From the IMG/VR virus record IMGVR_UViG_3300028591_000080, positions 159,745-223,744 of that record: 64,000 nt of DNA, one strand, 5' to 3'. The DNA is from a virus. Lineage: Duplodnaviria > Heunggongvirae > Uroviricota > Caudoviricetes. Positions 1-64,000 of the stretch are shown piece after piece (positions within the stretch are counted from its first letter, which is position 1; the number at the start of each line of letters is the position of its first letter). A program made the translations under genes and the position numbers. The notes under the pieces are model-generated. The model was not told the DNA's origin, made no database searches, and saw only the letters and a program-made list of their open reading frames with translations.

Positions 1-178
1 AAATTATCTTTATAGGCAACTAAAAATAATTAGTTAAATATATCCTAGCATTCGTCTATCATATCTAGAATTGCGTTTTAAGTTTTCCATAAGTGTTTTA
101 TCAAGTCAAAAATAAAACGTTCCTAAAACGTAAAAAATAGAGGCTATCGCTAACCTCTATAATTTATTAATAATTTAT

Positions 179-664
179 TTAATTTCCAAATACTGTTTTA
201 CAGAAGTTAAGACATCTCATTCCATTTGGAGTCCACTTCTTAATTACGAACTCATTAGTTCCGTCGTGATGATAACCATACACTCTTAAGTTTCCAAATC
301 TATCTTCTGTAATTTTAACATAATCGATATCATTGTTTAGTATTTTACCTAAAGCTATTTCTAGATTATCACACTTAACATTATCAATTTTGTGTCTTCC
401 ATTCCAAAGTCCTAAAGTTCCTGTAATTACGACTGGAGTATTTTTCAAATCACTGTAATACCAATTTCCTTCAGGTCCAAAGTCATCTTCATAACAACTA
501 ATATTCCAATCATTTATTCTGTCTCTGATTTGGTCTTCTGTTAAACCTTCCATATCTTCTTCACAACCATCGAAATAATCTTTTATTAATTGTTTCTCTT
601 CTTCGATTGAAAATAAACCTAAGTCCTTATAAATTGTTTTCTCCTTTAAATTTACATGCTTCAT
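179..664 (-). CDS. hypothetical early protein (161 aa)
   Basis: Intact ORF with AGGAGG RBS just upstream and its own promoter at 694-725; no recognisable motif. Confidence 0.55.
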   Translation of the reverse strand: MKHVNLKEKTIYKDLGLFSIEEEKQLIKDYFDGCEEDMEGLTEDQIRDRINDWNISCYEDDFGPEGNWYYSDLKNTPVVITGTLGLWNGRHKIDNVKCDNLEIALGKILNNDIDYVKITEDRFGNLRVYGYHHDGTNEFVIKKWTPNGMRCLNFCKTVFGN

Positions 665-693
665 AATAATATTCCTCCTTTATTATTTACAAG

Positions 694-725
694 TATATTA
701 TACTACACTTTCAGTGATTTGTAAA
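694..725 (-). promoter_or_regulatory. sigma-A-type promoter for 179..664 (minus strand -35 TTTACA at 720-725, 17-bp spacer, -10 TATAAT at 697-702)
   Basis: Hexamers and spacing read directly from the sequence. Confidence 0.5.
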
Positions 726-736
726 TACTTTTTTAA

Positions 737-2840: not shown

Positions 2841-3380
2841 TTATAAAGTTTTATATTTAACGACTATGTTATCAAAATATTCAGGGTCGTCTTCAGTTGG
2901 TGCAAACATTAATTCAACTCTTTCATTCTTATGAGTAGGCTTAGTTCTATTAAACTTCTTTAATGCTTCATCAAATGTTTGGAAAACTATTTCATTATAG
3001 TATTCTGTAGTTTCAGTATCATATTTTAACACATACCAATCTTTATCTTGATAACGATCCTCTACTGCGTGGTGAGCGGTTTCCTCTTCATAATTATCGA
3101 GACAATTAATCTCTAGACTTCTTTTAACCATCTTCTCATACTTCTTAAGTATAGTATTTACTAATTTTAGATCTGTCTTAAATTCATCTTCTGAATTATA
3201 TCTTGACTTAACTCCACGAACTTCATCTGTAAATACTGTAGTTATTCTTCCATCAGTTTCATCTTCAATTTCTTTAGTAAGGTTATCCCAACCTTCTTGT
3301 CCTAAAACATAAAACAAATGTTCTAATCTTATAATCTTATTATTATCAAATCTCTTGATACAATTATTCCAAGTTGACAT
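2841..3380 (-). CDS. hypothetical protein (179 aa)
   Basis: ORF with own cassette. Confidence 0.5.
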   Translation of the reverse strand: MSTWNNCIKRFDNNKIIRLEHLFYVLGQEGWDNLTKEIEDETDGRITTVFTDEVRGVKSRYNSEDEFKTDLKLVNTILKKYEKMVKRSLEINCLDNYEEETAHHAVEDRYQDKDWYVLKYDTETTEYYNEIVFQTFDEALKKFNRTKPTHKNERVELMFAPTEDDPEYFDNIVVKYKTL

Positions 3381-15609: not shown

Positions 15610-15884
15610 ACCAATACATCTCCTCTGTTTTATTACATTATCATTATACTACAAAAAATAAAAAATGTAAATACTTTTTTGATAAAAATATAAAAAAATA
15701 TTGTATATTATTATATTATACAATTTTATTATATATTATACGCGCGTGTAAAGGGTCGGTATATTATACTAAGTATCTCCCTCGGCAACTAAAAATAATT
15801 AGTCTCTTAAATCACCTAGATTGAAACATGCACTCCGAGATTCAAGGTCCGGAAGTTGCTCGAAAAAATCTGTAAATACTTTGT

Positions 15885-15900
15885 ATAATATAGTGTAAGT
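15885..15900 (+). promoter_or_regulatory. plus-strand extended -10-like element (tttgTATAATat)
   Basis: Read directly; about 200 nt upstream of the plus-strand terminator at 16095-16131. Confidence 0.3.
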
Positions 15901-16094
15901 TCTAATGACTTAGAAAAATACTGAAAAGTAAATTTACTAAGCAGCCATTCCTCCTGGCTGATAGAACTTATAAAACGACTAAGAGCGAGTGATCCTAAAG
16001 ATATAGAATTTTTCTTTATCTATAACTAATAGGTGACTCGGTACTAGTGGTACACTCTTAGGAAGTTTTTCATTCATCTTTCCTCCTTTCTATA

Positions 16095-16131
16095 GAACTA
16101 GACAATTCCTCCTGTCTAGTTCTTTTTTTTT
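16095..16131 (+). terminator. intrinsic terminator on the plus strand (gaactagaca/tgtctagttc stem, 9-nt T-run)
   Basis: Perfect 10-bp stem followed by tttttttttt, read directly. Confidence 0.55.
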
Positions 16132-16354
16132 CGCCTAGAAAATATTTAAAACCCTACCCGTAGCTAACTAAATTATTTTAGTACATTAGCTAGCTCGGTG
16201 GTCCGTGTCTCTCCAGGAAAAACACCAGCCGAATCCACTGTGATTTGGTCCGCTCATCCTCGCGCCAAAATAAAAAAGTACTAAAAACTTTTAGTACTCT
16301 TACTCTCGCGCACGCGCCTGTACACGCACCCAAAACACTGTAAATTGGAAAACG

Positions 16355-16500
16355 CTGTAATGTCCAAATCCCGGCAATTTGGCTGAAAACCAGGTGGATT
16401 CCAAAACCCGGCGATTTCGACCAGGCTAAAATGCAGTAAATTCCAAAACCCGGTAAATTCGGCCTATAAAAACAAAAATCCAAATCCCGGTAAATTCAGG
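16355..16500. repeat. four direct iteron-like repeats (tccaaaWcccggYRaWttYRg) at 35-41 bp spacing
   Basis: Copies at about 16364, 16399, 16440 and 16477; the local GC content is well above the rest of the window. Confidence 0.55.
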
Positions 16501-16514
16501 ACTCGGATTTTTTC

Positions 16515-17489: not shown

Positions 17490-18629
17490 TTACTTTATAT
17501 TCTGTATTATATAGTCTAAGTAAGGAGTTAGTAGTTCTTTATATTTATCTAGAGAGAATTTTGTTTGTAGTCTAGATATATCTACTGCTGTTTTTATTAA
17601 TAATTCTTTTTTTACTTCTAGTAGCTGTGCTTTAGTACTAAAACTAAAATATTTTCCGTAAGTATAGGTAGTTAGCCATAGCCAGTCTCCAGCCCACATT
17701 GTTATTGGTGTTTTTGCTGTTCTTCCTTCTTTAATACCTATACCAGGTTTACTTACTCAAGTATCTGTTATTTTACCTGTAATATCTTTTATTTCTACTA
17801 CGAAAGGTTGTTCGACATGTTTGTGGTGTATTGCTTCTATAAAATATATATTTATATCTACTTTTAATTTATTTATTGCTCCACCATTAACCGTCTTTAT
17901 TAACTGTAATACTGGTTTATAGAATATTAAAGAATTTTTTATTAGATTCTTTATAGCGAGTTTTACTGCTGTAAGTACTTGATCTCTCGGACTAACTCGA
18001 GTTAATACTATATCATTAAAACAGTTTATAAAGCGTTCTATCGTTTCCATCTTGTCGTCATTATCTATTCCGAAATAATATATTCTATCTTTTAATGGCC
18101 ATTTTTCCTGATTATGACGATAAGTTGCATGTTCTACTTCATCATTTCCAAGTTGAATATCTATATTATTTATTTCTATATTTGAGTCGGTAAAGAACTT
18201 ATTTAGCTCTGCATCATTTTTTAATAACTTACTTACTTTATCTCTAGTTTCGTACATCTCCATATAAGAATCATATAAAAGACCACTTACAATCCCATCA
18301 TATTCTTGTACTGTACGTTTTGATGACATTTCTACTTGATCAAGTAGTAAGCCATGTTGTTTTACATATGTATAAGAGTCTTTTTGAATAATTCTTACAT
18401 AGTTTAATATTTTTTGATTAACTTCTATTCCTAAGGTTATTTTTAATTCTACAGGGTGTCCTAAGAAATAAGTACTATATAAAAAGTATTGTGATATTAT
18501 TTCTAATTCTGTTAGGTTTCCTTCAGGAGATAGATCCATTTTTCCAGTTGTAAAAGCTGATTTTAGTTTTGATTGACTGAATACTTCTATCTTCATTTGT
18601 TTCTCCATGTGTCCTTCAGCGAAAGACAA
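17490..18629 (-). CDS. paralog-array member P1, about 379 aa, with one in-frame TGA read as Trp at 17757-17759
   Basis: Track ORFs 17757..18629 and 17490..17699 share a frame and are separated only by the TGA; the fused C-terminus (DKYKELLTPYLDYIIQNIK) matches the C-terminus of paralog P2 (NDYYDLLKPYVGQIINDL). Confidence 0.6.
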
Positions 18630-18632
18630 TTA

Positions 18633-19763
18633 CTATAGATCATTTATGATCTGTCCTACATAAGGTTTTAAAAGATCATAATAATCATTGAAGTTTTTAG
18701 GTTGGAATTTTGCTAATGCCATGATTGTTTTTTCAAATAAAACTGATTTATTATTTTGTATTTTTGTTTTAGTATTTAAAATTATTCGATCAAAAATATA
18801 TTCTGGATACATTCCAGGATTATTCCAAAGCTTTCCAATTGTTATTCCTATAATATCATTTGTTACTGGAGCATTTGTTAGTTCTTTTACATCAAAGATA
18901 AATGTTGCATATAAATTTGGAATAAGATGTTCAACTCTTCCATCTGTTATCTCTACTCCTATTGGAAGAGTTTTCTCAGTGAAGTCAGGTTGAAAATAAA
19001 TATTTATACTTATACTAGGTATTTGTGTTTGTATAGCATGCCACTTATTTACTTTACTAATTAACTGCATAGCTTGTGGAGTAAATAAGAGTAATACATT
19101 TATAGATTTTATTATTATCTCTTCTAATCTTTCTTCTAGTCTTTCATTAGGTTGGCGGTATTGTACTTGTTGAGAAAAATATAGTGGAAGTCTTTCGTCT
19201 AGATCATTTAAACTATCTACATAAGTTAGTCCACTTGAATTATCGGCTAATGGTTTTAAAAAATATCTATCTATAGCTATATCAAGATGTTGAACCGTAT
19301 TAAGTTCTATTCTCTCTTGATCCATGTAAGATTCGTATTTTAAATTTATTTCATATAAAGATAATCTATGATCTGATACACATTTAAGTATGTTGGGATT
19401 CTTAGCTAATTTAAGTCCAACTTTAGCATTTAGTTTTTGAAGATCTTTTTTTCTTACATCTAGATTTTTAGCATAGTCATAAACTTTCTGTACAGTAACA
19501 CAACCATTAATCTCTTCATCCTCATATCCAGTTTGCATTAACCAAGTATATGTTTCATCTATTATTGTTTTTAAATTAGTTAAGATTGCATTAGTTATAG
19601 GTAAATGTAATCTTTCTTTTATTTCATTTGTATAAGTTAAGAAAAATGCTGCATACACAAGTTGATGTATTGCATCATCTGCATGAATAATAGGATTTTT
19701 CCATTTTCCAGTTTTATATATTTGTTCTAACTTTTCTGGCGATAAATTTTTTATCCATATCAT
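18633..19763 (-). CDS. paralog-array member P2 (376 aa)
   Basis: Shares N-terminal (HQLVYAAFFLTY), central and C-terminal blocks with P1 and P3. Confidence 0.6.
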   Translation of the reverse strand: MIWIKNLSPEKLEQIYKTGKWKNPIIHADDAIHQLVYAAFFLTYTNEIKERLHLPITNAILTNLKTIIDETYTWLMQTGYEDEEINGCVTVQKVYDYAKNLDVRKKDLQKLNAKVGLKLAKNPNILKCVSDHRLSLYEINLKYESYMDQERIELNTVQHLDIAIDRYFLKPLADNSSGLTYVDSLNDLDERLPLYFSQQVQYRQPNERLEERLEEIIIKSINVLLLFTPQAMQLISKVNKWHAIQTQIPSISINIYFQPDFTEKTLPIGVEITDGRVEHLIPNLYATFIFDVKELTNAPVTNDIIGITIGKLWNNPGMYPEYIFDRIILNTKTKIQNNKSVLFEKTIMALAKFQPKNFNDYYDLLKPYVGQIINDL

Positions 19764-19773
19764 ATTTTATCTC

Positions 19774-20826
19774 CTAAAATTTCATTCGATCAACAAGTGC
19801 ATCAACTGCATTTGCCCAATGAATATTATCTTCATGTTGCATTAAACCTAAAGCTAATGTGAGATTACGGAAGATAGATTTAGCATTCGACTTCATACTA
19901 GCTTTATTACTACAATCATACCCAAAGATTGTTGTAACTGGTTCACCTATTCTAGTAATAGGTTTAGTTTTATCTGTTTGTGTTTTATATGTACAATCTA
20001 CACTTGCTCTTGAAATATATGGAATAGCATCAATGTGTGCATCTTCGAATTCAATTACTATTCTTAATTCATCTAAAAATTTATCTAGATCTAAATTAAC
20101 AACAACTTTAAGTTCTAGACTATTTAAATAAACCTTATGATTATTATGGTTCTTTAAAATTAAATATACTAATTGTGTAGCTTGCTTATTTAATAAGAAT
20201 ATTCTTTTAAGTCCATCTAAAACTAAATGTTTTATTTCTGTATGTAAATAACTATTCTGAGTTAAAAGTGTATATATATTTCCAAATCTTAATGAACGAT
20301 TTTTATCATTAACAAGTGCTAAGAATTCTTTATCTATTGCTATTGTTAATGGTAGATTTAGTGCCAAGTCGAATCTATTTAATTTAATATCTAAGTCTTC
20401 TAATTCAATACGTGATTCTTTAAGAAATTTTACTAAATCTGGACTTGTTGAAATAGTATCATATAAATCTTGTTCGTTATTTATTATGGCTTTATTATGT
20501 TCTAGTCTATGCTTTACAAATTCGTAAACATCTCTAAGTGTACATTGATCATTGACAACATTATCTAATAAATTTAAATCTTTTAATTCATAATAAGCTT
20601 CCATAAAGACACTATCAACATTAACTAAAACACTATATACCCAGCTTATTCCAAGTCTATTATATAATTCATCTTTATAATGTAAAAAGTAGGCACTATA
20701 TATAAAATAGTGCACTAACTCATTAATTTTTTCAGCCTCAGTTAAATTAGGATCAAATTGTCCGATTCTACCATTCGTGAACGCTACACTTAATGCATGT
20801 TTGCTGAATGCTTGTAATTTAAACAT
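19774..20826 (-). CDS. paralog-array member P3 (350 aa)
   Basis: ELVHYFIYSAYFLHY aligns with the P1 and P2 N-terminal blocks; the C-terminal KTKPITRIGEP block also matches. Confidence 0.6.
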   Translation of the reverse strand: MFKLQAFSKHALSVAFTNGRIGQFDPNLTEAEKINELVHYFIYSAYFLHYKDELYNRLGISWVYSVLVNVDSVFMEAYYELKDLNLLDNVVNDQCTLRDVYEFVKHRLEHNKAIINNEQDLYDTISTSPDLVKFLKESRIELEDLDIKLNRFDLALNLPLTIAIDKEFLALVNDKNRSLRFGNIYTLLTQNSYLHTEIKHLVLDGLKRIFLLNKQATQLVYLILKNHNNHKVYLNSLELKVVVNLDLDKFLDELRIVIEFEDAHIDAIPYISRASVDCTYKTQTDKTKPITRIGEPVTTIFGYDCSNKASMKSNAKSIFRNLTLALGLMQHEDNIHWANAVDALVDRMKF

Positions 20827-20836
20827 AAATCTCCTC

Positions 20837-22922: not shown

Positions 22923-22999
22923 TTTTAACTCCTTTAAGATTTTTAAACTTTTTATATATTTTAAATACTTTACAAAGTTTAAATATTTTAAATACTTTT

Positions 23000-23774: not shown

Positions 23775-23852
23775 ACTAAATCTCCATAATAATTAAATAA
23801 TCAATACAGATAATTTAGCAATTATAAAAAGAAAAGTAAGGATCAAATGTCC

Positions 23853-41225: not shown

Positions 41226-41235
41226 AACCTAACTC

Positions 41236-42375: not shown

Positions 42376-42376
42376 A

Positions 42377-43360: not shown

Positions 43361-43368
43361 TATGACTA

Positions 43369-43851: not shown

Positions 43852-44648
43852 TAAATCTTCACCTCTAAATCATCAGGTTCATACTTAGGCATTAGTACTA
43901 ACTTATGTAAATTAGCTCTGTGCATTCTATCAATCTTTTCTTTATGTTCTAGATTTTCAATAACACCAGTTCGAATATAAGTATCTAATTCATCATAAGT
44001 AAATCCTAACTTCTCTTCATCAGACTTACCACTCATTCCATCGCTAGGAACTTTTTCAATTAAATCCTTTGGTAAACCTAATTCATAACCTAATTCTTTA
44101 ACTTCATGAACAGTTAAATTTGCAAGTGGTGAAAAGTCTCCTGCACTATCTCCATACTTAGTTGAATAACCAACCCAGTCCTCAGATAAATTACAAGTAT
44201 TGGCTACTCTTGCATTACCAAGAATTGCTGCAACTCCGTATAAAGTTGTCATACGAATTCTTGCTGGAGTATTAGTTTCATATACATCATTAAACTTTGT
44301 TGCATAATTAGTTATATAACTTGAGCAAGTTCTATTTATTCTATGTCTAGACTTAAATCCTTCAAATATTGATTGTCTTAACATTAAAGTAGCATAACCA
44401 ATATTTATACAAGTATAATCAATACCTAAATGCTTAACTAATTCTAATGATTTATCAATATCCTTTTGTTCACCATCTGGCATTAATACGCCAAATACTT
44501 TATCCTTACCAAGTGCTTCCACACATAAAGCAGCACAAACTGAACTATCTTTGCCACCACTAATTCCAATAACAACTGTACAATCACCTACAGTCTTTCT
44601 AACCCATTCAACTAAATCTTCTTTACATTTCTTTGCATTAAATTCCAT
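43851..44648 (-). CDS. nadE: NH3-dependent NAD+ synthetase
   Basis: PP-loop GISGGKDSSV; 265 aa, NadE-sized. Confidence 0.8.
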   Translation of the reverse strand: MEFNAKKCKEDLVEWVRKTVGDCTVVIGISGGKDSSVCAALCVEALGKDKVFGVLMPDGEQKDIDKSLELVKHLGIDYTCINIGYATLMLRQSIFEGFKSRHRINRTCSSYITNYATKFNDVYETNTPARIRMTTLYGVAAILGNARVANTCNLSEDWVGYSTKYGDSAGDFSPLANLTVHEVKELGYELGLPKDLIEKVPSDGMSGKSDEEKLGFTYDELDTYIRTGVIENLEHKEKIDRMHRANLHKLVLMPKYEPDDLEVKI

Positions 44649-44678
44649 ATTGTTCTCCTTTAAACTCTTTTAATTTAT

Positions 44679-46624: not shown

Positions 46625-47435
46625 CTTAATTTCCAAGTTTACTTAGTAATGAATCTAAAACTATTTCTTTAATTAATGGCATTAGTTCCATCATATAGTC
46701 ATCTTCTATTTTATCATTAGCTCATTTAATTTCTAAGTGTCCACCACATTCTTTTGGACATGGTGCATCATGCATTATAATAGCTACAATTACTTTAACC
46801 ATTGTCATATCTTTAAATTTAAGAAATGAGCGTGGTGTTTTTTCATATAATTCTATTTCATCAATGTCGCCATTTGAACATCCGATAGTAAGAGCTACTT
46901 CATCTTTATTTCTTGCTGCATAGATAGCATTTTCTACAGCACCTGGATGAGCTTGAATTGGATAAGTTAATCCTAAAATTCGAGTAATTTCTGCTGCGTA
47001 TTTTAGTCAACATTCTCCATGACCATCATCAGCTCTATAATAATCTTCTATCTCTTTTGTTGGAAATACTTTTTCACCGTGTTCTTCATCTGCTCAAATG
47101 TTTAGACGTTTATCATTTAACATTTCAACATCTACTAAATAATGACAATATTCATGTGCAAAAGTATTTTCAAATAATTCTTCCAATCCGTTCTTTAATA
47201 CATATTGACTAACTTCTATTTGAATCATAGCCTCATGATGTAATACGTCTCTACCAAATAAAGTACTACCTAAAGTATTGGTTGAATCATATCCTTTAAG
47301 TGATACTCCTAATAAACTAGGATTTGGTTTTCAATCTGGATGAGCTTTAGATATTTTAAATAAAACTTGATTAGCAATAAACATTGCTAAATCTTCTTCC
47401 ATATAATCATTTTTATCTTCAAATAAATTAACCAT
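46625..47435 (-). CDS. HExxH zinc-metallopeptidase-like protein, about 269 aa, with 4 in-frame TGA codons
   Basis: ATG with AAGGAG RBS 9 nt upstream; FAHEYCHYLVD HExxH motif; all four Trp positions (HPDWKPN, LNIWADE, GECWLKY, EIKWAND) are TGA; ends at TAA; invisible to the standard-code ORF track. Confidence 0.55.
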
Positions 47436-47475
47436 AAGTAGAAACTCCTTACAGTATAATTTAGCAATCTAAATA

Positions 47476-48765
47476 TTAACTTGTATGTTCGACATTATAT
47501 CTTGTAGTTTGATCACTTGCAAATTTAATTAAATCTTCCTTATTATTTTTTAAGATTCCACTATAAACTTCAATTAATGTCATCTCTAATGCAGTTCTAA
47601 TTTGTTTTCCTTTATAACCTAAAGCAATCATATCATTACCATCAACTGCTAATTGATTTAAAGAATAACAACCGCTTTCAAATACTAAATTAATAACTTC
47701 TGTTGAATTAAAATAATATCTGTTAATAGCGTCAATAAATACAAAAGCATCTTGAATTTCAAGTAATTTTCTTACTAGCCATTCAGCATCTTTATTAGAA
47801 TAACCATATGTATCAACTAATCTATGACCTAAAGCTCCAACACTGTCTGAGTCATCAAGATTAACCTTTCTAACTTCTCTACTTAATACTTTAATTAATT
47901 TTGTATCTTTTGTTGAAAATTTTAAACGAGTTAAAATAGCTTCAGTTTGTTCAGGAGTTAAGTATGAACAAATTCCAATAAAGTTATCAACATAATGATC
48001 AGTCACAAGCTTAAATAATTGCTTATTTAAGTACTTAAATTCAGGAATAATATGATAAATAATAGCACCAGGCATAAATCCTTGCATTAAATCACCAACA
48101 GTCTCATAATCAAAGATTCTAATAATCTCATCATGGATTCTTTCTGCAGAAATACTATCTAATAAATCTTCTTGGAAAAACATTGCGTACATAGTTCCAT
48201 TCTCAATATGGAAATTATACTTGCATGCAAATCTAAGACCACGCAAGATTCTTAGAGCATCCTCTTTAAATCTTTCTTTAGGGTCTCCAACTGCACGAAC
48301 AATACCTTCTTTTAGGTCCTTTAATCCACCAAATGGGTCAATTACAGTATCACCGCTGTTATATGCCATCGCGTTGATAGTAAAGTCACGTCTAGCTAAA
48401 TCTTTTACAATATCTTTAGTAAATTCAACAGATTCAGGGTGTCTATTATCTTTATATTCGCCATCAATACGATATGTAGTGATTTCAATATTCTCTTCAT
48501 TGTATCTAACTGTTACAGTTCCGTGCTTTTCTCCATTGTTATTAATGATAGGATAATCTTTAAATACTTCTTTAATTTCATCAGGAGTCGCATTAGTAGT
48601 TAAGTCAATATCTTTAATTGAATGACCTAATAAAAGGTCCCTTACCGCTCCGCCGACAATATAAGCTTCATATCCAGCAGTTTCAAGTTTATTAAAAACA
48701 AATTGTACAATATCTTTTTGCTTAGCTGTAAGTAAATCAAATAAATTATTTGACACTTTAATCAC
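47476..48765 (-). CDS. cca: tRNA nucleotidyltransferase (CCA-adding enzyme)
   Basis: Pol-beta-type head YIVGGAVRDLLLG ... DIDL ... RDFTINAMAY; 429 aa. Confidence 0.75.
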   Translation of the reverse strand: MIKVSNNLFDLLTAKQKDIVQFVFNKLETAGYEAYIVGGAVRDLLLGHSIKDIDLTTNATPDEIKEVFKDYPIINNNGEKHGTVTVRYNEENIEITTYRIDGEYKDNRHPESVEFTKDIVKDLARRDFTINAMAYNSGDTVIDPFGGLKDLKEGIVRAVGDPKERFKEDALRILRGLRFACKYNFHIENGTMYAMFFQEDLLDSISAERIHDEIIRIFDYETVGDLMQGFMPGAIIYHIIPEFKYLNKQLFKLVTDHYVDNFIGICSYLTPEQTEAILTRLKFSTKDTKLIKVLSREVRKVNLDDSDSVGALGHRLVDTYGYSNKDAEWLVRKLLEIQDAFVFIDAINRYYFNSTEVINLVFESGCYSLNQLAVDGNDMIALGYKGKQIRTALEMTLIEVYSGILKNNKEDLIKFASDQTTRYNVEHTS

Positions 48766-49546
48766 CTTCTTTTAAATAATATTTTTTAAAGCGTAATAAA
48801 CTTTCATTTGTAAAAGTTATTTGTCCTGCTTTATATAACTCAACTATAAAAGGACGAGTTAACTGTTTAAAATCTTTGTTTGAAAATAAAACATATTCTA
48901 GATTATTATTTGAACAGTAGGTTTCAGCCGCTTGCTTTTTTAATAAAACAACCTCTGAACTTAACTCTCTAAAATCTTTAATCTCATATAAATATTTATT
49001 ATCGACCAAAAAGTCTGGTCTATATTGATGGATAGTTCCACTGGTATCACTATAATAAATGGTCATAGTTTCTGCTGATTTAATTGTATGATTTTCATTT
49101 AACATTTTATAGATAAATGATAATTCAACAAGAGACCTAAATAGATATCCAGAATACCAACCAGCATAACCACGACCATTAACTGGGTTATCTTCAGTAA
49201 ATTTATGTGGATTATTTATTCCTTTTGCAAAATAATGATGATTAGCTTTTCAATCATCACTCTTAAAACGTTCTGTCAAAGACTTACCTAATTGTTTCTT
49301 ATTATATTCTGCCCAAGTATAAGTACGTATACCTTTTTGATAATCTTCATGTTGACGACAGCCTCTACATAGGTCTCTATCATCTCTTTTTTTAAAATTT
49401 AATTGTTGTGAATGATAATTTATCTTATAAATTTTACCGCATACATCACATCTAACTTCGATAATATCACCAGTACTAAATCCTACCCTTCCTTTTTTAA
49501 ATCCATGTGCACCTGCTTGTAATATTCTTGGTTTACTAAGTATCAT
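48758..49546 (-). CDS. zinc-finger plus PD-(D/E)xK nuclease-domain protein (homing-endonuclease-like), about 262 aa, with one in-frame TGA
   Basis: Track ORFs 49250..49546 and 48758..49105 share a frame, separated only by TGA; N-terminal CDVCGK...CRGCRQ, C-terminal YRPDFLVDNKYLYEIKDF (PD...EIK). Confidence 0.55.
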
Positions 49547-49706
49547 AAATAATCTCCTTATTTTTTATTCATTTAATTTAGCAAACAAAACGCAGCCACC
49601 AACAAAATAGGTTACTCTATATAAATAATACAATAATTCCTAATATAAGTGTAACACTTGTTATAACTAATTTAACAATATCATTAATTAATTTTAATTT
49701 CATAAG

Positions 49707-52036: not shown

Positions 52037-52435
52037 CTACTCACTCTTATCCTCTTTTAGCCACCAAGTTTTCTTATAGTCCTTTAAATATAAAACATAG
52101 GTTGCTACATCATAAACACCATAGTGTTGTTTAATTTCAAAATTACCATCTATAAATACTGGTTTTGCAAAATATAATTGATGCCAATCATCCATAATAT
52201 ATATTCCATCAAATGCTTTGAAAAACACATTTAATGGACAACCTAGTTTATCTTGTAAATCGACAACCTCTTTAATAGTTTCTAATGCATCAACCATCTC
52301 ATATGCATCTTTGCAAAAGTCTTCATCATGAGTATCTTTATAAGCATCAAAAAAATTAGAATTACCACTACTATTTAAGCAGCATAAGTTATCTATTTTA
52401 TTATAAGCTAATTTTAAATCCATTCTATTCACCAT
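52037..52435 (-). CDS. hypothetical protein (132 aa)
   Basis: ORF. Confidence 0.45.
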   Translation of the reverse strand: MVNRMDLKLAYNKIDNLCCLNSSGNSNFFDAYKDTHDEDFCKDAYEMVDALETIKEVVDLQDKLGCPLNVFFKAFDGIYIMDDWHQLYFAKPVFIDGNFEIKQHYGVYDVATYVLYLKDYKKTWWLKEDKSE

Positions 52436-53024
52436 CTTCTTTTTTCATATAAGGCTCAATATTTCTAACTAATGATTCAATCCATAAATCAAACATTCTT
52501 AATTGACTTGCATACTCATAGTAAGTATGTTGTGCGTATTTAATTAATGGATAAACAAAATCTTCAGTTTCTTTTAAATATTTTGCTTTCTTTACTTCTG
52601 AGAAATTAAATAATGTTGAAAGATTATGTGTTCTATCTGCAAGTTTAACTAATGTTGCTATTTCATTATTTTGAATTCCTTCATAATATAATACATTATT
52701 ATATCCTTTAGGTTTAGATAAAGCTAGAACGGCACTTACAATCTTTGAGCTAAAAGTAGCAATAAGCTTTGCTTTAAGTTGTTCATCCTCACTATCCTCT
52801 AATACATCATGTAATAAGGCCACAGCTAATATATCATCATCTCTAATTCCTAACTCAAATAATAATGATGCAACCTTAACTGGATGCTCTATATATGGAG
52901 TTACATTATCTTTTCTAAAAACACCTTCATGAGCTTTCTCAGCTAATGCAAATGCTTTAAGAGCTGTATATTTTTCAGCTCCCATTAATTTTCCTCTAAA
53001 TAATTCAAATGATGTTTTGCTCAT
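52425..53024 (-). CDS. HD-domain phosphohydrolase, RelA/SpoT-type small alarmone hydrolase-like
   Basis: TPYIEHPVKVA ... AVALLHDVLEDS matches the (p)ppGpp hydrolase HD motif arrangement. Confidence 0.55.
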   Translation of the reverse strand: MSKTSFELFRGKLMGAEKYTALKAFALAEKAHEGVFRKDNVTPYIEHPVKVASLLFELGIRDDDILAVALLHDVLEDSEDEQLKAKLIATFSSKIVSAVLALSKPKGYNNVLYYEGIQNNEIATLVKLADRTHNLSTLFNFSEVKKAKYLKETEDFVYPLIKYAQHTYYEYASQLRMFDLWIESLVRNIEPYMKKEDGE

Positions 53025-56984: not shown

Positions 56985-57263
56985 CTAAATATTTAACTTT
57001 TCAATTAAATCATCTATAGCATCTTCCACTTCATCGACACCATCAAGCTCACCATCATCAGGATCTGCAGAGATATCGTCAACTAGTGAATAAATATTAT
57101 TTAAATCACTAACTATATCTGCATGACTTACAGTCTCATAATCATCAATAGCAATTTCAGAATGACTCTTATTAATCACTATATTAAAATTATAAGGACA
57201 ATTTTCTTCAATAAACTTTTTAAGTTTATCTTCAAAATCAAATGTTAATTGTAAAGCTGACAT
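56985..57263 (-). CDS. hypothetical highly acidic protein (92 aa)
   Basis: ORF; Asp/Glu-rich C-terminus. Confidence 0.4.
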   Translation of the reverse strand: MSALQLTFDFEDKLKKFIEENCPYNFNIVINKSHSEIAIDDYETVSHADIVSDLNNIYSLVDDISADPDDGELDGVDEVEDAIDDLIEKLNI

Positions 57264-57272
57264 TAATTACAC

Positions 57273-58538
57273 CTACTTCCAAGTTGCTTGAACTTTTGCA
57301 ATTTCTTTTAAGCCTTTTTCAGCATAAGCTAAGTTCTTAACTTTGAATGAGAAACCAGTTCCTCTTTCTTTGTTATAGTTATCTGACTTGACCACAATAC
57401 CCTCATGTTGAGCGTATTGCTTCCATAACTTTTCATTTGCTGTTGGAATATGAATAATAGCCTCTTTGTTCCAATATACATTTTCAGCATATTTTACTAA
57501 AGAATCAACAGTATCAAATTTGCTACCCATATCTTCAACGGTCTCAACTAATGGTACACAATTTAATCCTAACTTATCTGCAACTTCATGCATTTTAGGA
57601 TATGGATATTCTACCCATTGTCCATTTTCAAAACCTTTCATTCTGAATACAAACCATTGAACTTGCTTATATCCATAAATATTTTCTTGAATACCAGGGC
57701 CAACTTGCTCACCTTGAATCATTAATCTAATTCCAGTTTTCTTTAAATAAGCCTTTAACTTATTTGCAATATCATATCTTTCAGCTGTTGCCCAGAATAC
57801 TTTTGAAGTATCATCAACTCTATCAAATCTGTTGTTTCTTGAACATACATAGAAAGCATCTTTCTTCTTTGCATCTAATGAGCATGTGAATGATTGACCT
57901 TCCATCTTAGCTGTAATATAAGCTTTAGTTCCTGGGAACATAGAAATAACACTCTTATAATTTTGAATAGTTGTTTCATCAGACTTAGAAATAATTTCAG
58001 TTGGGAAGTTACCTTTAGAGAACTTTCTCTTTCGGTTCTCCATGTAGATATTTCCGATCCATCTAGTTAACTTATGCTTTAAGAAGAACTTGATAATTCT
58101 AGGAATCTTTGGCATCTTCTTAGGTGATGCGTCTTCGGCTGGCTCATACTTTCTAATATTTAACTTATCAGTTACATCTGTTCCAGCTTTTAAGTTTTCA
58201 GGTAATCCTGCTTCAGCTAATGTTACACATAAACCCCAAGACTTAACTCTTTCACCAGAATCTGTTCCATCTTCATTTGCTTTCTTACCCATAGTCATGC
58301 ACTTAATTAAGAAACCTTGTAAGTCTTCTCTATAGCATCTCTTTCTTAAGAATTCCCATTTTTCTTCTATAGGTAAAATACTGTCAGCTTCAATGAATAC
58401 CATTTTATCACCAACATTTACAGTATTAGGAACAATACATTCATAAGCATTTTCTTCAAAGGATACATAACAAATTCTATCCTTTTCAAACATCTTTCCT
58501 TTACTAGCTACGGTAACAATTTTAGCCATATCTCGCAT
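57273..58538 (-). CDS. ATP-dependent polynucleotide ligase of the RNA-ligase (Rnl) family
   Basis: Motif I ITAKMEGQS (KxxG), motif IV QHEGIVVKS, motif V FSFKVKN; a separate DNA ligase exists at 25828..27159. Confidence 0.5.
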   Translation of the reverse strand: MRDMAKIVTVASKGKMFEKDRICYVSFEENAYECIVPNTVNVGDKMVFIEADSILPIEEKWEFLRKRCYREDLQGFLIKCMTMGKKANEDGTDSGERVKSWGLCVTLAEAGLPENLKAGTDVTDKLNIRKYEPAEDASPKKMPKIPRIIKFFLKHKLTRWIGNIYMENRKRKFSKGNFPTEIISKSDETTIQNYKSVISMFPGTKAYITAKMEGQSFTCSLDAKKKDAFYVCSRNNRFDRVDDTSKVFWATAERYDIANKLKAYLKKTGIRLMIQGEQVGPGIQENIYGYKQVQWFVFRMKGFENGQWVEYPYPKMHEVADKLGLNCVPLVETVEDMGSKFDTVDSLVKYAENVYWNKEAIIHIPTANEKLWKQYAQHEGIVVKSDNYNKERGTGFSFKVKNLAYAEKGLKEIAKVQATWK

Positions 58539-58567
58539 AATATCACGTCCTTTTTAATTACAATTTA

Positions 58568-59509
58568 TTATACAATAAAATCTTCTTTTTTATAGCCATT
58601 TTTATAAAACCAATCTAAATATTTCTGATAGTCTGACTCAGTTAAAATTTTAACATTATTATTTATTGCACACCAGTATTTCGCTTCTACTAGACCAGAA
58701 TTTTCTGCATCGAATGGATTATACCAAACTCCATGCTCATTAATAAAACATTTGCCTTTTATCTCAACCAACTGGCCTTTAATACTAAAGTCTGGGTAAT
58801 ATTCATGAGTGACTCCATCATAATAATAAATCAATTTTATAGGTTCACGTATAATTTCTATATTATTTTTTATACAATATAAATATAAACATAACTCAGG
58901 AAAAGAATCAAATGATATATTTTTATAATTAAATTTATTTGATAGTCCGTGTCGTACACCATAGCGTAATTCCATAGTATCAAAAGCTTTAGTTTTAAAA
59001 ATATCTAATTCAAATGGATGAGATACGCCATATTTAGTTTGCATGCCACCCTCCCTAAATTCAGCCAACTTAAGTGGATTATCAACACCATATTTTTTAA
59101 TACAAGTATTTTTATATGATTCTTTATAAGTATCCGTTTTAGAATAATGTGTTACACCAAAATGTTCTAAATAAGTTTTTTCTTTTGTAAGTTTGACTAT
59201 CTCTGCTTTTGATGGGTTATCTACACCATACTTTTTAATATTTGATTCTTTTATTTTTTGTTTTATAGTATCAGCTGCAAAAGCGTTAGTTACTCCATAT
59301 TTTTTTAAACAAGTCTGTATATAAGCTTGCTTATACAATATTTTATTTTCTTCATTAGTATGTCTTGAAATATTATACTTTTGTAAAACTCTTAAGATTC
59401 TTGGGATGAAATGACAATTAAAATGAGTACCAGTATTGCTATCAGTATGAGTTTTATAATATTCGATTATTTCTAATTCTTCTTGCTCAGTAAATTCTTT
59501 TCTAGCCAT
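58568..59509 (-). CDS. tandem-repeat (KKYGVxNP x6) protein with C-terminal PD-(D/E)xK nuclease-like domain (homing-endonuclease-like)
   Basis: Six roughly 30-aa modules (CLKKYGVTNAF, NIKKYGVDNPS, LEHFGVTHYS, CIKKYGVDNPL, QTKYGVSHPF, ELRYGVRHGL); C-terminal HEYYPDF...LVEIKG resembles the nuclease domain of 48758..49546. Confidence 0.5.
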   Translation of the reverse strand: MARKEFTEQEELEIIEYYKTHTDSNTGTHFNCHFIPRILRVLQKYNISRHTNEENKILYKQAYIQTCLKKYGVTNAFAADTIKQKIKESNIKKYGVDNPSKAEIVKLTKEKTYLEHFGVTHYSKTDTYKESYKNTCIKKYGVDNPLKLAEFREGGMQTKYGVSHPFELDIFKTKAFDTMELRYGVRHGLSNKFNYKNISFDSFPELCLYLYCIKNNIEIIREPIKLIYYYDGVTHEYYPDFSIKGQLVEIKGKCFINEHGVWYNPFDAENSGLVEAKYWCAINNNVKILTESDYQKYLDWFYKNGYKKEDFIV

Positions 59510-59566
59510 GTCGTGTTCTCCTTAAAAATAAAAGGTTAGATGAGAACACGACTAATCATCTAACCT
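59510..59566 (-). promoter_or_regulatory. 5' leader hairpin/terminator with loop complementarity to the downstream SD region (pseudoknot or attenuator) for 58568..59509
   Basis: Stem aggttagatga/tcatctaacct plus U-run; loop gtcgtgttc(tc) is the exact reverse complement of gagaacacgac, which overlaps the AAGGAG RBS. Confidence 0.5.
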
Positions 59567-59689
59567 TGTATATAAAAATATCCGAAGATATAATTACTTA
59601 ATATTATACAATTTATTTTTGCCGTGTTCTATATAGTCTTTCAACTACATATAATTTAGCAGATCATTTTTTAATATTTTTTTAATTTT

Positions 59690-60268: not shown

Positions 60269-60287
60269 ATCTTAAAAATCCTTTCTT

Positions 60288-62966
60288 TTATAAATTTATT
60301 TGAACTGACTTATTACTTACACAGTCATATACTATGACTCTTTTTATATTTAAGTCACTTCTTTTTGTAGATAAATAATGGTAAGCTAGGACTTGCTTTA
60401 ACATTTTTAAGTTAATTTCATTTGTAGTTTTAACATCTAAAATAGTATCTTCTGTGATATAATCTGCTAATCCGGAAATATGCTTTATTGACAAATTTGG
60501 ATCAATATTATCTATAGCTTCACTATTTTTATATAAATTTTCTTTGATGAAATCGGCAGTTTTTGTGCCTAATTCAACTACAGTGTTTACAAAAGTATCA
60601 TACTCAGTTTGAATTAACTGAGAAACGCTTATAGTTTTAATAATTTTACTTAATGTCTGCCCATATGAATTACACATCATTTGTCTATATTTAAGCATGC
60701 AAGCTCTAATAATTAATCTATCATTTGTAAAAGAAGCATCTTTTATTTTAGCTTCTTTTCTAGCTAAGTCTAAGAAATGTTCTAAATAGGAATTACCATA
60801 AACTAAATATTTAGAATAATACTCTACACAGTATCCCAAGCAGCTATTACATTTTGTATCAAAATTAAATTTATTTTTTCCTGTAAACAAATACTGTTTT
60901 GCATTCTCAATCTCATTATTATATTTTTTAGATAAGAATGTTCCGAATTTAGAATATTGACTAATTTTGCTACTGACAGCCTTATCTTCGATCCAAATAA
61001 CTTTATTATTATCATCTTTCACTGCCTTCATTCTATCAACACCAACAATAGCACTTTCTCTATCATTAATTACTTTTTTATAATTTTTATAAGAGGTCTG
61101 AGTTAAATCATTCACATCCACATAATGAGCAAACTTTCCTTGCAATACGAGTTTATTATTTTTATTTCTATCAATAGAAAATAGTTTTATTTTTCTGTCA
61201 ACCTTAGCTTTAAAATTGTCTATATAAATATTTTCTATCAACTTATGTTCAATTTTCTGCTCAAATATATTATTTCGTATGAAATCGTGACTATTTAAAT
61301 CCAAGTAAAGAAATTTAATATATTCATCTAATTGTTCTTTAGCTGACTCCTCAGTTTTATAGTATCTGGTAGTGATACTAAAATAATGTTTAAAGAAATC
61401 CTCTGAAGAAAATTTAGTAGCCTGAAAATCTTGTTCGAAAGTAAGACCAGCACAAGTTAATGTTTTTATTCCATATCTTCCTTTTTTAGTTTTTTGTACA
61501 GCTGAATTTCTTATGTCTTCTATTGTGTTATCGATTAATTTATAAACATCATTAACATATTTTTTCGTTCTTTTTACTATGATAGAAGTTGTTTCATAAA
61601 GGTCTAATAGTGTAACTTCTTCTACATGATTACCTCTTACCCAATCAAATTTTTCAACCTGGTATTTTTTTGGTGTTAATTTTTGTAAGTCAGTTAGTCG
61701 ATAAATACGAGGAAAACTTTTATCAAGATTTCCATCCAATAATTGAATTAGTAATTCATTGCCTGCAGTACATTTACTATAGAAGTTTCCCTCTGGCTTG
61801 ATAACGTTGAAACCAGTTTTTTCATCAACTAAAACTTCATAATAACCTGTTTCGTTCTCAAGTTCTATTATCTTTAGTCCATTATCCATTATTCCCTTAT
61901 TAACATAAATTTTACTGTTAGGTTTTAATTTTTCTACTGAAATAATATCACAAAATTCTGTCTGTAATTCTCCATTTTCGTCAGTATCTACTTTCATATT
62001 CTCGACATTATAATAAACATAACATTGTCTAGTACTTGCTAATAGTTTTTTATTTGAGCTATCAAAAATATTAATGTCATTTCTATATAGCAAAGCATTT
62101 CTTCTTGATCGACCTATAACTTGAATTGTTGTAGCACTATTTGATGGCTGATTGTCCATATATATCACATGGCATCTTCTTAAATCAATACCTTCAGTAA
62201 TTTTAAATTTATTAATTATAACATCATATTCGTTATCATCTTTACATAACTCGGACATATCATAATTTTCATCAATAATATTTTTATATCTTAAATTATA
62301 TTTATCACATAAAGCAATTAAGTCATTTACAAAAGTTTTTTTATCAATTAGTCTGAATAATGCACAAGGATTATAGTTCGCTACATTCTTATGCGCTTTT
62401 TTTACTTCTAATAGCTTCAAAATTGCATCTTCAATCGTTCCAGTTTCTTGGTGCACAGTTCTTAACATCATGGTATTTGTAAAATTACAGCTAATATTTG
62501 CTTGTCGCAAAGTCGCACTTATATTTATTGTTTTATAGCATTTGCTAATTAATAATTCTTCAAATTTATTAGTATTAATATGACCATCATCTCTTAGCCA
62601 GATACATTTGCTATTCTTAGGGATTCGACCTAGGATATCTGCAGCCTTTAACTTTGAATTTATTTTATAATCGCAAGAACCGTAAACATAAAAATTATCT
62701 TTAATAATATCTTTATTAAGACCTTGTATAATTTGATTATTTAATTGTCCTTTAGATAGTGTAGTTATAATAAAATAATAATTTTCATTTGATGAAGAAT
62801 TTAGTTTATTGATAAATTTACTGATCATTTTTGTTTTACCAGTGCCGGTAGGTGATTGAAAGTTAATATACTTATTAACGGTATCATTGTTCATATATTT
62901 AATTAACTCATCTACATAAAAATCTTGTGTGTCATTTATTTCTTTAAAAGCTTCCTCTTTAGTCAT
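60288..62966 (-). CDS. SF2 helicase (N-terminal half) with large C-terminal extension ending in a PD-(D/E)xK-like motif
   Basis: Walker A FQSPTGTGKT, DEAH-like WLRDDGH, motif VI QVIGRSRRN; C-terminal ILDVKTT. Confidence 0.6.
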   Translation of the reverse strand: MTKEEAFKEINDTQDFYVDELIKYMNNDTVNKYINFQSPTGTGKTKMISKFINKLNSSSNENYYFIITTLSKGQLNNQIIQGLNKDIIKDNFYVYGSCDYKINSKLKAADILGRIPKNSKCIWLRDDGHINTNKFEELLISKCYKTINISATLRQANISCNFTNTMMLRTVHQETGTIEDAILKLLEVKKAHKNVANYNPCALFRLIDKKTFVNDLIALCDKYNLRYKNIIDENYDMSELCKDDNEYDVIINKFKITEGIDLRRCHVIYMDNQPSNSATTIQVIGRSRRNALLYRNDINIFDSSNKKLLASTRQCYVYYNVENMKVDTDENGELQTEFCDIISVEKLKPNSKIYVNKGIMDNGLKIIELENETGYYEVLVDEKTGFNVIKPEGNFYSKCTAGNELLIQLLDGNLDKSFPRIYRLTDLQKLTPKKYQVEKFDWVRGNHVEEVTLLDLYETTSIIVKRTKKYVNDVYKLIDNTIEDIRNSAVQKTKKGRYGIKTLTCAGLTFEQDFQATKFSSEDFFKHYFSITTRYYKTEESAKEQLDEYIKFLYLDLNSHDFIRNNIFEQKIEHKLIENIYIDNFKAKVDRKIKLFSIDRNKNNKLVLQGKFAHYVDVNDLTQTSYKNYKKVINDRESAIVGVDRMKAVKDDNNKVIWIEDKAVSSKISQYSKFGTFLSKKYNNEIENAKQYLFTGKNKFNFDTKCNSCLGYCVEYYSKYLVYGNSYLEHFLDLARKEAKIKDASFTNDRLIIRACMLKYRQMMCNSYGQTLSKIIKTISVSQLIQTEYDTFVNTVVELGTKTADFIKENLYKNSEAIDNIDPNLSIKHISGLADYITEDTILDVKTTNEINLKMLKQVLAYHYLSTKRSDLNIKRVIVYDCVSNKSVQINL

Positions 62967-63126
62967 ATAAAAAAATCACTCCTTAATTGTACCATGTTTA
63001 TTTTACATTATATTATACAATTAAAAGTGATTATTTTTTAATATTTTTTTAATTTTTTAATATTTTATTTTCGGCCACCATCTAGTTTATAGTTCTAGAA
63101 AACTTTACTTTATATTATACAATATA

Positions 63127-64000
63127 TTATTCAATAAACTTTGTGTTTTCACCAACTTGATCATTAGACTCTATCTTAATAGTTTCTTTACCAGTTAACT
63201 TAAGTTTTAAATAACCTTTTCTAACATCAAATGGCATAAATACACCAGAGTACTCTTCACATTCAAGAGTCTCTTGATCAATCAGTGTGAACTTATTACC
63301 ATGGTTGTCTTTAATAACAGTTCCAACAGGAAGAGTATTAATATAAGCTTTTCTTCCTACATAGTTAATCTTATAATCAAAATTAGGATATAATTTAAAA
63401 AACTTATTTGCTAATTCTGGCAAGTGCTTTCTAAGACACTCAGCTAAATATGGAAGGGTTTCAGTTTGATAACTTCTTATTGGCTTACGATCAAAGATTG
63501 TTAATGGTGTTTCAACAAATAATCTATATAATAAACCATCTTTACTTAAATCTTCTAAGTCAGTCTTTAAAATAAAACTTGGATCACAGCCACCAAAAGG
63601 AACATGAAGTGCAACTTCTAAACCAGAAGGTAATTTGAAGAAATTGAAATCCCAATTTCTATCGTCAGGTCTGCGTTCTCTTATCTCTATAGTATGAAGA
63701 TTTATATAAACATAATCACCCATAACACCAAGTAAATTATGAGATGCAGGTCTCTCTAATTTATCATAAGCTGGATCTTCTTTATATTTCCACTTAAAGT
63801 CAGAATATTTACTAGCATACTTAGTAAAACCTTTTACTTTGCTCAAATGTCCATAAATACATTTTGTACTTGCAAAACCACTTGTTACTTTAAGACAGGT
63901 ATTATTCTTATAAAAAGAACATGAATCACAGTGGTCACAAGAGATTATTTCAGCTCTTAATGGACAACCACGATCTCCGCTTCCATAAAGTGAAACATTA
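63127..64000 (-). CDS. hypothetical Cys-rich protein, N-terminus beyond the window edge (partial)
   Basis: The frame stays open upstream of the track's Met to position 64000 (…CPLRAEIISCDHCDSC…IYGHLSKVKGFTKYAS…). Confidence 0.45.
   Translation of the reverse strand, partial: NVSLYGSGDRGCPLRAEIISCDHCDSCSFYKNNTCLKVTSGFASTKCIYGHLSKVKGFTKYASKYSDFKWKYKEDPAYDKLERPASHNLLGVMGDYVYINLHTIEIRERRPDDRNWDFNFFKLPSGLEVALHVPFGGCDPSFILKTDLEDLSKDGLLYRLFVETPLTIFDRKPIRSYQTETLPYLAECLRKHLPELANKFFKLYPNFDYKINYVGRKAYINTLPVGTVIKDNHGNKFTLIDQETLECEEYSGVFMPFDVRKGYLKLKLTGKETIKIESNDQVGENTKFIE

Follow-up and report, generated by a model that had tools for sequence, protein, structure and literature searches.

Does the codon TGA still end genes in this virus and, if it does not, what does it encode and who supplies the means to read it? 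The question is raised by a stretch of 64,000 nucleotides (nt) from a tailed phage (Duplodnaviria; Heunggongvirae; Uroviricota; Caudoviricetes), positions 159,745 to 223,744 of the IMG/VR record IMGVR_UViG_3300028591_000080, which at its full length is referred to below as the window. An original prediction, made from the sequence alone, had proposed that TGA is read here as tryptophan (Trp) in a phage that otherwise uses TGG. The analysis shows that TGA has been given up as a terminator in this phage lineage, and comparison with homologues strongly supports its use as a Trp sense codon. The recoding is probably driven by the phage itself. The window has a base composition of 28.8% G+C and a strong strand skew, and its coding sequence lies essentially all on the minus strand.

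1-64000, minus strand: whole window, about 100 genes; 77 TAA, 23 TAG and 0 TGA stops; 213 TGG and 17 TGA codons in frame.

The open reading frames (ORFs) behind this census are non-overlapping, start with ATG, are at least 50 amino acids (aa) long and have TAA and TAG as their only stops. Every frame that ends at a TGA when the window is called in the standard bacterial code (code 11), at 17757, 22233, 22638, 23091, 23271, 23502, 46722, 47094 and 49250, runs on in frame into the next piece. Two earlier claims, that TGA terminates none of about 95 genes and that the apparent TGA stops continue into the next ORF, are therefore upheld (0 of 100 ORFs), while TAA makes up 77% of the stops and not about 85%. 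When code 4, with TGA as Trp, replaces code 11, the bases in ORFs rise from 57,192 to 59,658 (+4%) and six genes become contiguous.

The absence of TGA stops had also been described as far outside expectation, on an assumed share of 15-25%. This baseline is too high, as a standard-code Clostridioides phage of 25.7% G+C uses TGA for 6 of 82 stops (7.3%) and a standard-code relative of recoded phages for 4 of 146 (2.7%) (Borges et al., 10.1101/2021.08.26.457843). From these two values the probability of finding no TGA among 100 stops is 5e-4 to 0.065, not about 1e-7, and with a realistic baseline of 3-7% in such AT-rich phages the zero count alone is suggestive, not decisive. What is decisive is the set of 23 TAG against 0 TGA stops, together with the clustering of the 17 in-frame TGAs in six genes; in standard-code relatives of recoded phages TAG is rarer than TGA as a stop (Borges et al., 10.1101/2021.08.26.457843). 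The tabulation was extended to the readable flanks, which reach about 16 kb beyond the window on the upstream side and 10 kb on the downstream side, where 41 genes of the same phage or close strains include only two code-11 calls with a TGA end, a 29-aa ORF and a 67-aa gene with a TAG three codons further on. Neither is an unambiguous terminator, so the flanks hold two doubtful calls and no clear TGA stop that would speak against the prediction. The relative L003, at 45% amino acid identity, likewise has almost no TGA, either as stop or as sense codon, and TGA-ended gene calls are only rare in the relatives L033 and L034.

The in-frame TGAs number exactly 17 and fall, as had been predicted and at the same coordinates, into six minus-strand ORFs in a region that otherwise writes Trp as TGG.

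48758-49546, minus strand: TnsA-like / PD-(D/E)XK endonuclease, 262 aa; TGA at 49250-49252 (aa 99); Pfam Tn7_TnsA-like_N 3e-7, PHROG endonuclease 6e-12.
46626-47435, minus strand: SprT-like HExxH metalloprotease, 269 aa; Pfam SprT-like 5e-7; TGAs at 47331-47333, 47094-47096, 47007-47009 and 46722-46724 (aa 35, 114, 143 and 239); no TGG.
23490-23774, minus strand: 94-aa ORF, function unassigned, first gene of a cassette; TGAs at 23715-23717, 23658-23660 and 23502-23504; no TGG.
22998-23480, minus strand: GIY-YIG homing endonuclease (predicted), 160 aa; TGAs at 23475-23477, 23271-23273, 23091-23093 and 23016-23018 (aa 2, 70, 130 and 155); no TGG.
21927-22922, minus strand: 331-aa ORF, function unassigned, last gene of the cassette; TGAs at 22848-22850, 22638-22640, 22629-22631 and 22233-22235; one TGG.
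17490-18608, minus strand: P1, 372 aa, a paralog of a four-gene array; TGA at 17757-17759 (aa 296).

The distribution of TGA and TGG over genes is bimodal: the SprT-like gene (4:0), the 94-aa ORF (3:0), the GIY-YIG gene (4:0) and the 331-aa ORF (4:1) together hold 15 TGA and 1 TGG, and the other 94 genes of the window 0 TGA and 206 TGG. When the 17 TGAs were permuted among the 230 Trp-type codons, six genes or fewer were reached in 0 of 200,000 permutations. Overall, TGA accounts for 7% of the Trp codons (17 TGA against 213 TGG).

The ORF at 22998-23480 has the domain and the small free-standing phage ORF expected of a GIY-YIG homing endonuclease and is predicted to be one (Pfam PF01541 GIY-YIG 4e-5, above cutoff; PHROG 314 homing endonuclease 1e-31). 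It aligns to I-TevI, and its residues G3, Y4, Y6, Y17, G19 and E67 are invariant in 16 homologues. The TnsA-like gene is likely a free-standing homing endonuclease too. It lies directly upstream of a gene for a CCA-adding enzyme both in the window, where the GTG start of the CCA gene overlaps the last codons of the nuclease gene, and in a divergent phage (L034, 902-3162), whereas L003 (8770-9973) has no TnsA-like nuclease and its CCA gene consists of two overlapping ORFs; the adjacency in two phages and the absence in the third are consistent with the CCA locus being a homing site.

The meaning of TGA was read from homologues, in searches in which the TGA positions were entered as X, which avoids a bias toward Trp; one search of representative proteins was run with a TGA-free segment as query. 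For the SprT-like protein, six homologues have W at all four TGA positions, with F in the most distant one, and the underlying codons are TGG at aa 35, 143 and 239 in L004 (47% identity), TGG at the invariant aa 143 in the syntenic L003 (45%), and TGG at aa 114 and 143 with TGA at the other two positions in L005 (84%). The four TGA positions of the GIY-YIG protein correspond to W (or Y/F) in 15 homologues, of which the one in L033 (71% identity) has TGG at aa 2, 70, 130 and 155; in the alignment to I-TevI, aa 70 falls on the W of the segment ERENFWIKELN. A homologue of the TnsA-like protein, P0117 in L034 (56-59% identity, also beside the CCA enzyme), has TGG at aa 99. In total, 9 of the 17 TGA positions (four SprT-like, four GIY-YIG, one TnsA-like) match a TGG-coded Trp, the remaining eight lying in ORFs that have no homologues beyond the strain cluster. 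P1 resembles its paralog P2 across the TGA up to aa 371, and the alignment of P1 to P4 is uninformative on the residue at the TGA position itself.

Close strains point the same way. Across 18 contigs of close strains and relatives, 102 TGA codons were kept, TGA and TGG were swapped at four positions, and TGA never changed to another codon. These swaps occur among strains that are 84-98% identical; codon 311 of P1, for example, reads TGG in the window, whereas L015 and L016 have TGA there. The genes are also functional and under purifying selection: the full-length ORFs are 96-100% conserved in at least eight independent assemblies (the 94-aa and 331-aa ORFs are full-length in eight strain contigs), and the ratio of nonsynonymous to synonymous polymorphism (pN/pS) downstream of the first TGA is 0.33 for the SprT-like gene, 0.12 for the 94-aa ORF, 0.29 for the GIY-YIG gene, 0.09 for the 331-aa ORF and 0.29 for P1, compared with 0.20 for the remaining genes, these sums running over related strains and hence not being independent counts. 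The predicted reading of TGA as Trp is thus borne out by the matched TGG codons, the swaps and the selection on downstream sequence, which together support it strongly.

As to how the codon is read, TGG has been kept in 94% of genes despite AT pressure, which implies that, at the time of expression of most genes, TGA cannot be read safely. From codon use we infer a host that keeps the standard code, a suppressor tRNA with anticodon UCA encoded elsewhere in the phage, and temporal gating; phage-driven TGA-to-Trp recoding in a standard-code host, with a phage-supplied decoder, is probably the correct explanation. Most phage genes would be readable in either code, with Trp as TGG and stops as TAA or TAG, and in the window these would comprise all the replication, nucleotide, nicotinamide adenine dinucleotide (NAD) and tRNA-processing genes seen; the helicase, the ligases and the NAD, nucleotide and tRNA-processing genes carry no TGA. 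A decoder, most probably a UCA tRNA in the unread part of a tRNA array, would later make UGA readable as Trp, and because TGA would be unreadable until then, the gated genes (a pair of homing-type endonucleases, the two small genes beside one of these, the SprT-like protease and one paralog of the array) would be completed only thereafter. The pattern fits the published model of phage-driven, stage-restricted recoding, or an early stage of such recoding.

The CCA-adding enzyme had been taken as a hint that tRNA genes exist elsewhere, and an array of 20 tRNAs is indeed found upstream, some 6-16 kb away from the window (L023, 1-10000; read in the same phage or in strains 99% identical to it). 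It comprises tRNAs for Met, Glu (three), Thr (two), Gln (two), Ile, Leu (four), His, Lys (three), Arg (two) and Cys, continues past the readable 10 kb, and is interleaved with genes for Thg1 (tRNA-His guanylyltransferase), the RNA 2'-phosphotransferase Tpt1/KptA, two cytidylyltransferase-like proteins (CTP_transf_like) and a RAP-domain-like protein. A tmRNA lies at 983-1357 of L001, about 5 kb past the high-coordinate end of the window, and also at 10495-10868 of L023 (Rfam RF00023, 86 bits against a gathering score of 47), with the tag peptide AKSIFNKIANFFRGFGAQRVAALA; as a speculation, it might help to clear ribosomes that run through host TGA stops. The phage's large outlay on translation, which speaks for phage-driven recoding, includes at least 20 tRNAs, the tmRNA, Thg1, Tpt1 and three genes of the window.

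47476-48765, minus strand: CCA-adding enzyme (tRNA nucleotidyltransferase), 429 aa, GTG start; Pfam PolyA_pol 1e-42; no TGA.
57273-58538, minus strand: RNA ligase, 421 aa, tRNA or RNA repair; Pfam RNA_ligase 1e-18; no TGA.
35214-35660, minus strand: homologue of ribosomal protein bL9; Pfam Ribosomal_L9_N 2e-16, Ribosomal_L9_C 8e-11.

Thg1, Tpt1 and the two CTP_transf_like genes are likewise free of TGA. No tRNA or other known RNA was found in the window by ARAGORN or Rfam.

Several results weigh against phage-driven recoding with a phage decoder. Neither a tRNA with a UCA anticodon nor any tRNA-Trp is present among the 20 tRNAs of the readable 10 kb, and no ORF of the window has a GGQ or KMSKS motif, that is, a release factor or a tryptophanyl-tRNA synthetase (TrpRS). 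The recoded genes are not the structural or lysis genes on which the literature lays stress (the readable stretch is without the structural region), and the gain in coding sequence under code 4 is below the 10% threshold of one published pipeline. Finally, the lack of TGA stops extends to genes that appear to be early, which a host without any termination at TGA would explain equally well. Of the two readings that had originally been offered, enforcement of the recoding by the phage fits better than the other, while its suppressor tRNA, looked for outside the window, was not among the 20 tRNAs read.

Some elements of the array are unusual in their own right. The tRNA at 253-342 of L023, 90 nt in length, combines a long variable arm with the anticodon UUC (Glu). 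Under relaxed or intron settings only, 3089-3195 yields a tRNA-like element in which the acceptor stem is bulged, the variable arm is long and the anticodon loop has 16 nt. The segment at 1339-1463 gives a sub-threshold match to YrlA, a Y RNA-like family (40 bits, E = 4e-6, gathering score 69), and reads like a permuted tRNA, with the T-arm and 3' acceptor strand followed by the 5' acceptor strand and D-arm. ARAGORN with introns and lowered thresholds gave mostly implausible calls, and among these a "tRNA-Stop(tta)" interrupted by an intron of 169 nt was rejected. The array-adjacent protein had no match in IMG/VR or in GTDB genomes; JGI metagenomes held only relatives at 41-56% identity, in which no suppressor tRNA was found.

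Phages of code-4 hosts (Mycoplasma and Spiroplasma, e.g. SpV4) use TGA as a common Trp codon throughout, as their hosts do, and the present phage resembles them in having an AT-rich genome in which TGA is Trp and never a stop. It is conceivable, if unlikely, that the host itself uses code 4 (a Mollicutes-like or unrecognised rumen bacterium without release factor 2 and with a tRNA-Trp(UCA)) and that the phage simply follows it, the TGG bias being a legacy, for instance of a standard-code host that it left only recently. This would account for the lack of an unambiguous TGA terminator in about 140 genes of window and flanks and in the divergent L003, for the missing suppressor tRNA among the 20 phage tRNAs read and for the drift from TGG to TGA that is visibly under way in L005 and L015/L016; moreover, the annotated phages with the nearest homologues have Firmicutes as hosts, and the Mollicutes fall within this wider group. 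However, at 29% G+C and with 65-96% A-ending codons in the purine pairs of Lys, Glu, Gln, Leu and Arg (window), long adaptation to code 4 should have turned most Trp codons into TGA, and 93% of them are TGG. Time for such drift would have been ample, since relatives at about 45% amino acid identity share the avoidance of TGA stops, which must therefore be old. Nor is TGA the major Trp codon across most genes, as is the trait of code-4-host phages: it occurs in 6 of 100 genes, whereas the proportion of genes with recoding is about 90% in phages of recoded hosts and 26-71% in recoded phages of standard-code hosts (Borges et al., 10.1101/2021.08.26.457843). The pattern, with TGA in 7% of Trp codons and 6% of genes, speaks against full adaptation of the phage to a code-4 host.

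The original prediction had coupled a code-4 host with the import of TGA-rich genes from code-4 mobile elements. As a whole this is disfavoured, both by the low TGA share and by the SprT-like gene and P1, whose TGAs arose in place: the syntenic SprT-like genes of L003 and L004 have TGG, that of L005 has two TGA and two TGG, and L015 and L016 carry the extra TGA in P1. For the GIY-YIG gene, import from recoded elements is plausible. Its homologues in L021 (54% identity) and L022 (52% identity, 32% G+C) encode Trp by TGA only, which indicates that this endonuclease family circulates among TGA-recoded elements; the genes neighbouring the L022 homologue use TGG and TGA mixed.

Another alternative, which we consider improbable, is an incipient codon capture without a dedicated decoder, in which AT pressure purged the TGA stops and tRNA-Trp(CCA) reads UGA weakly, so that the TGAs act as attenuators keeping toxic or selfish nucleases and the protease very low. 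Very low expression is plausible for a set made up mostly of homing-type nucleases and a protease, the 20 tRNAs read include no suppressor, and at 7 of the 17 sites TGA is followed by A, a context that favours read-through. Against this, four genes have three or four TGAs, where a read-through of a few per cent per site would leave a full-length yield of about 1e-6 or less, and the regions downstream are under purifying selection as strong as in the rest of the genome. The 15:1 ratio of TGA to TGG in the multi-TGA genes, an almost complete replacement, also looks like a synonymous use that is free or even favoured, and not like one attenuating site. Phage-driven recoding agrees better with the codon statistics and with the genes that carry several TGAs than either attenuation by read-through or a code-4 host with a recent switch does.

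To a more speculative combination we give little credence: UGA might be decoded without a canonical UCA tRNA, with the tmRNA clearing the ribosomes that run through and the endonucleases being "code-locked" among TGA-recoded phages. Candidates for such non-canonical decoding might be the tRNA-like RNA with the 16-nt anticodon loop (L023, 3089-3195) or a termination remodelled by the bL9 homologue.

That the six ORFs are decaying pseudogenes or assembly artefacts, with TGA an ordinary but rare stop, is very improbable; unexpressed pseudogenes had been named as an outcome that would overturn the prediction. Homing endonuclease genes often decay, and TGA stops can be as few as 2.7% in low-G+C standard-code phages, which gives the upper of the two probabilities above; the TGAs, however, are conserved in at least eight independent assemblies, stand exactly on Trp positions of homologues and occur in ORFs free of frameshifts and other stops, and relatives at 45% identity keep the SprT-like gene at full length and in synteny. 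With the pN/pS values of 0.09-0.33 downstream, this reading is effectively refuted. Glycine (code 25, of Gracilibacteria, Absconditabacteria and their phages) and selenocysteine are known alternative meanings of TGA, and code-25 hosts are AT-rich, but these readings have next to no chance and, like cysteine, are ruled out by the alignments, since the nine informative positions align with Trp (Phe or Tyr in distant homologues) and never with Gly or Cys, TGA swaps specifically with TGG, and ARAGORN and Rfam found no selenocysteine tRNA in window or flanks, where the selenocysteine insertion sequence (SECIS) was not searched for specifically.

Stop-codon recoding in phages was reportedly described by Ivanova et al. 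and has been taken up in later surveys of jumbo phages, and TGA-recoded (code 4) phages of gut and rumen are known from the Agate and Jade clades (Borges et al., 10.1101/2021.08.26.457843; published 2022). The published route leads from low G+C through the loss of the stop codon to recoding, and a suppressor tRNA was detected in only 35% of code-4 phage genomes (Borges et al., 10.1101/2021.08.26.457843). The present phage resembles these clades in its low G+C, large genome and animal gut samples, in the loss of TGA as a stop with TAA and TAG kept, and in having TGA at Trp positions in a subset of genes. As published for them, the replication and other "machinery" genes, including the machinery of the code change, can be read in the standard code; the same site may be TGG in one close relative and TGA in another, and the suppressor tRNA is not always detectable. 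It differs in that the recoded genes are homing endonucleases, a SprT-like protease and a paralog instead of structural or lysis genes, in the share of recoded genes (6% in the window against 26-71% genome-wide), and in that a UCA tRNA, release factor 1 and TrpRS were not seen in the readable stretch.

Under the proposed recoding of a standard-code host by its phage, the system would also be akin to the TAG-recoded (code 15) crAss-like and Lak phages, in which suppressor tRNAs, large tRNA sets and a concentration of recoding in particular gene classes have been described. In those phages TAG has become Gln, whereas here it is a normal stop (23% of genes). Phage stop-codon recoding of this kind is thus already described, and the present case extends the phenomenon without overturning the current understanding. 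What is distinctive is modest: within 64 kb the only recoded genes are those of homing-type nucleases and their neighbours, of a protease and of one paralog, and the GIY-YIG family has Trp as TGA only in the three recoded contigs examined, while the 71%-identical homologue of L033 uses TGG. These two features suggest that an alternative code can act as a gate for selfish genes, or that such genes can specialise on it. For evolution, the lineage offers snapshots of a reassignment, with distant relatives that have TGG, one mixed gene and strains that are still converting TGG to TGA.

The recoding also matters for annotation. Under code 11 the six genes are split or truncated, and this is how the long public contigs are called: in L013-L016 the TGA cassette appears as fragments of 53 and 109-118 aa, whereas in the short contigs L018-L020 the caller used code 4 and gave proteins of 94, 160 and 331 aa, so that database proteins of this lineage are inconsistent. 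Pipelines that require a 10% gain in coding density would miss recoding in a region that gains 4%.

The coding strand of the window carries a short motif, TGCTAAATT, six times, in each case within the approximately 5% of sequence that is intergenic and 23-144 nt upstream of a gene start.

59653-59661, minus strand: TGCTAAATT, intergenic.
49575-49583, minus strand: TGCTAAATT, intergenic, 29 nt upstream of the TnsA-like gene.
47458-47466, minus strand: TGCTAAATT, intergenic, 23 nt upstream of the SprT-like gene; conserved in L003 and L005.
34669-34677, minus strand: TGCTAAATT, intergenic.
34036-34044, minus strand: TGCTAAATT, intergenic.
23812-23820, minus strand: TGCTAAATT, intergenic, 38 nt upstream of the three-gene TGA cassette.

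Three of the four TGA-bearing transcription units thus lie directly behind a copy, and the other three copies precede a DUF7487 nuclease-like gene, a 136-aa ORF and the gene of a CBM77-containing protein. The motif is kept upstream of many genes in distant relatives (L003, L033, L034, L022). Since it also precedes non-recoded genes, including the TGG-using SprT-like gene of L003, it would mark a transcription class and not recoding, and we regard it as a candidate phage promoter that resembles an extended -10 element. The longer form TTGCTAAATTA, whose three exact copies all precede TGA units, was considered as specific to TGA genes and rejected, as its core TGCTAAATT is not restricted to them. 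Homing endonucleases of phage T4 such as I-TevI are GIY-YIG proteins, free-standing or intron-encoded, that stay silent early and are made late, and their restriction relies on promoters of the late class and on a hairpin in the RNA that covers the ribosome-binding site. The gate proposed here would instead consist of the genetic code and a shared promoter-like motif, with a timing that is inferred.

The window belongs to a giant AT-rich phage known from metagenomes only. Over shared genes it is 100% identical to the contigs k141_4645334 (75.5 kb) and k141_4022077 of ENA ERZ27256846, strains at 97-98% identity are present in several other samples, and the longest contig of the population reaches 244,932 bp. 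The samples are probably from rumen or ruminant gut, as judged only from record names (SHIW14, WOLF17, XIEF21). Among GenBank phages, neither 20 kb of the window by megablast nor the helicase by tblastn gave a match, and those for the DNA ligase, the CCA enzyme and nicotinate phosphoribosyltransferase (NAPRTase) were all below 40% identity, from which we conclude that there is no known close relative; IMG/VR returned nothing for an exact 35-mer or for helicase peptides. Genes of the window include, besides the helicase, RNA ligase, CCA-adding enzyme and DNA ligase, a dCMP deaminase and an enzyme of the DAHP-synthase family.

The paralog array to which P1 belongs consists of four tandem genes (17490-21913, minus strand) of 350-376 aa that are 16-26% identical and have no Pfam or PHROG match, and it forms the end of a long gene run, just before a non-coding region. 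This region, at 15610-16514, is 905 nt long and locally G+C-rich, and contains five 23-nt iteron-like direct repeats (16342-16497, with a spacing of 37-42 nt), which are followed on the coding strand by several promoter-like sites of the TTTACA/TATAAT type and, beyond these, by small genes in a row. The stretch may serve as an origin or for packaging, or may be where the early region begins; a search with Rfam at a permissive threshold found nothing in it.

A dense cluster for NAD+ salvage and synthesis (37655-44669, minus strand), syntenic in L003, comprises NAPRTase, an isochorismatase/nicotinamidase-like protein, an AAA_33 kinase, an NrtR-like Nudix regulator, a fusion of Nudix and deoxyribosyltransferase-like domains, CinA/PncC and NadE. 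Three further minus-strand genes of signalling or stress type are unusual for a phage.

28118-28555, minus strand: stand-alone GGDEF diguanylate cyclase.
52425-53024, minus strand: HD_4 protein (RelA/SpoT-type hydrolase).
31214-32785, minus strand: SPFH/flotillin-like protein, 523 aa.

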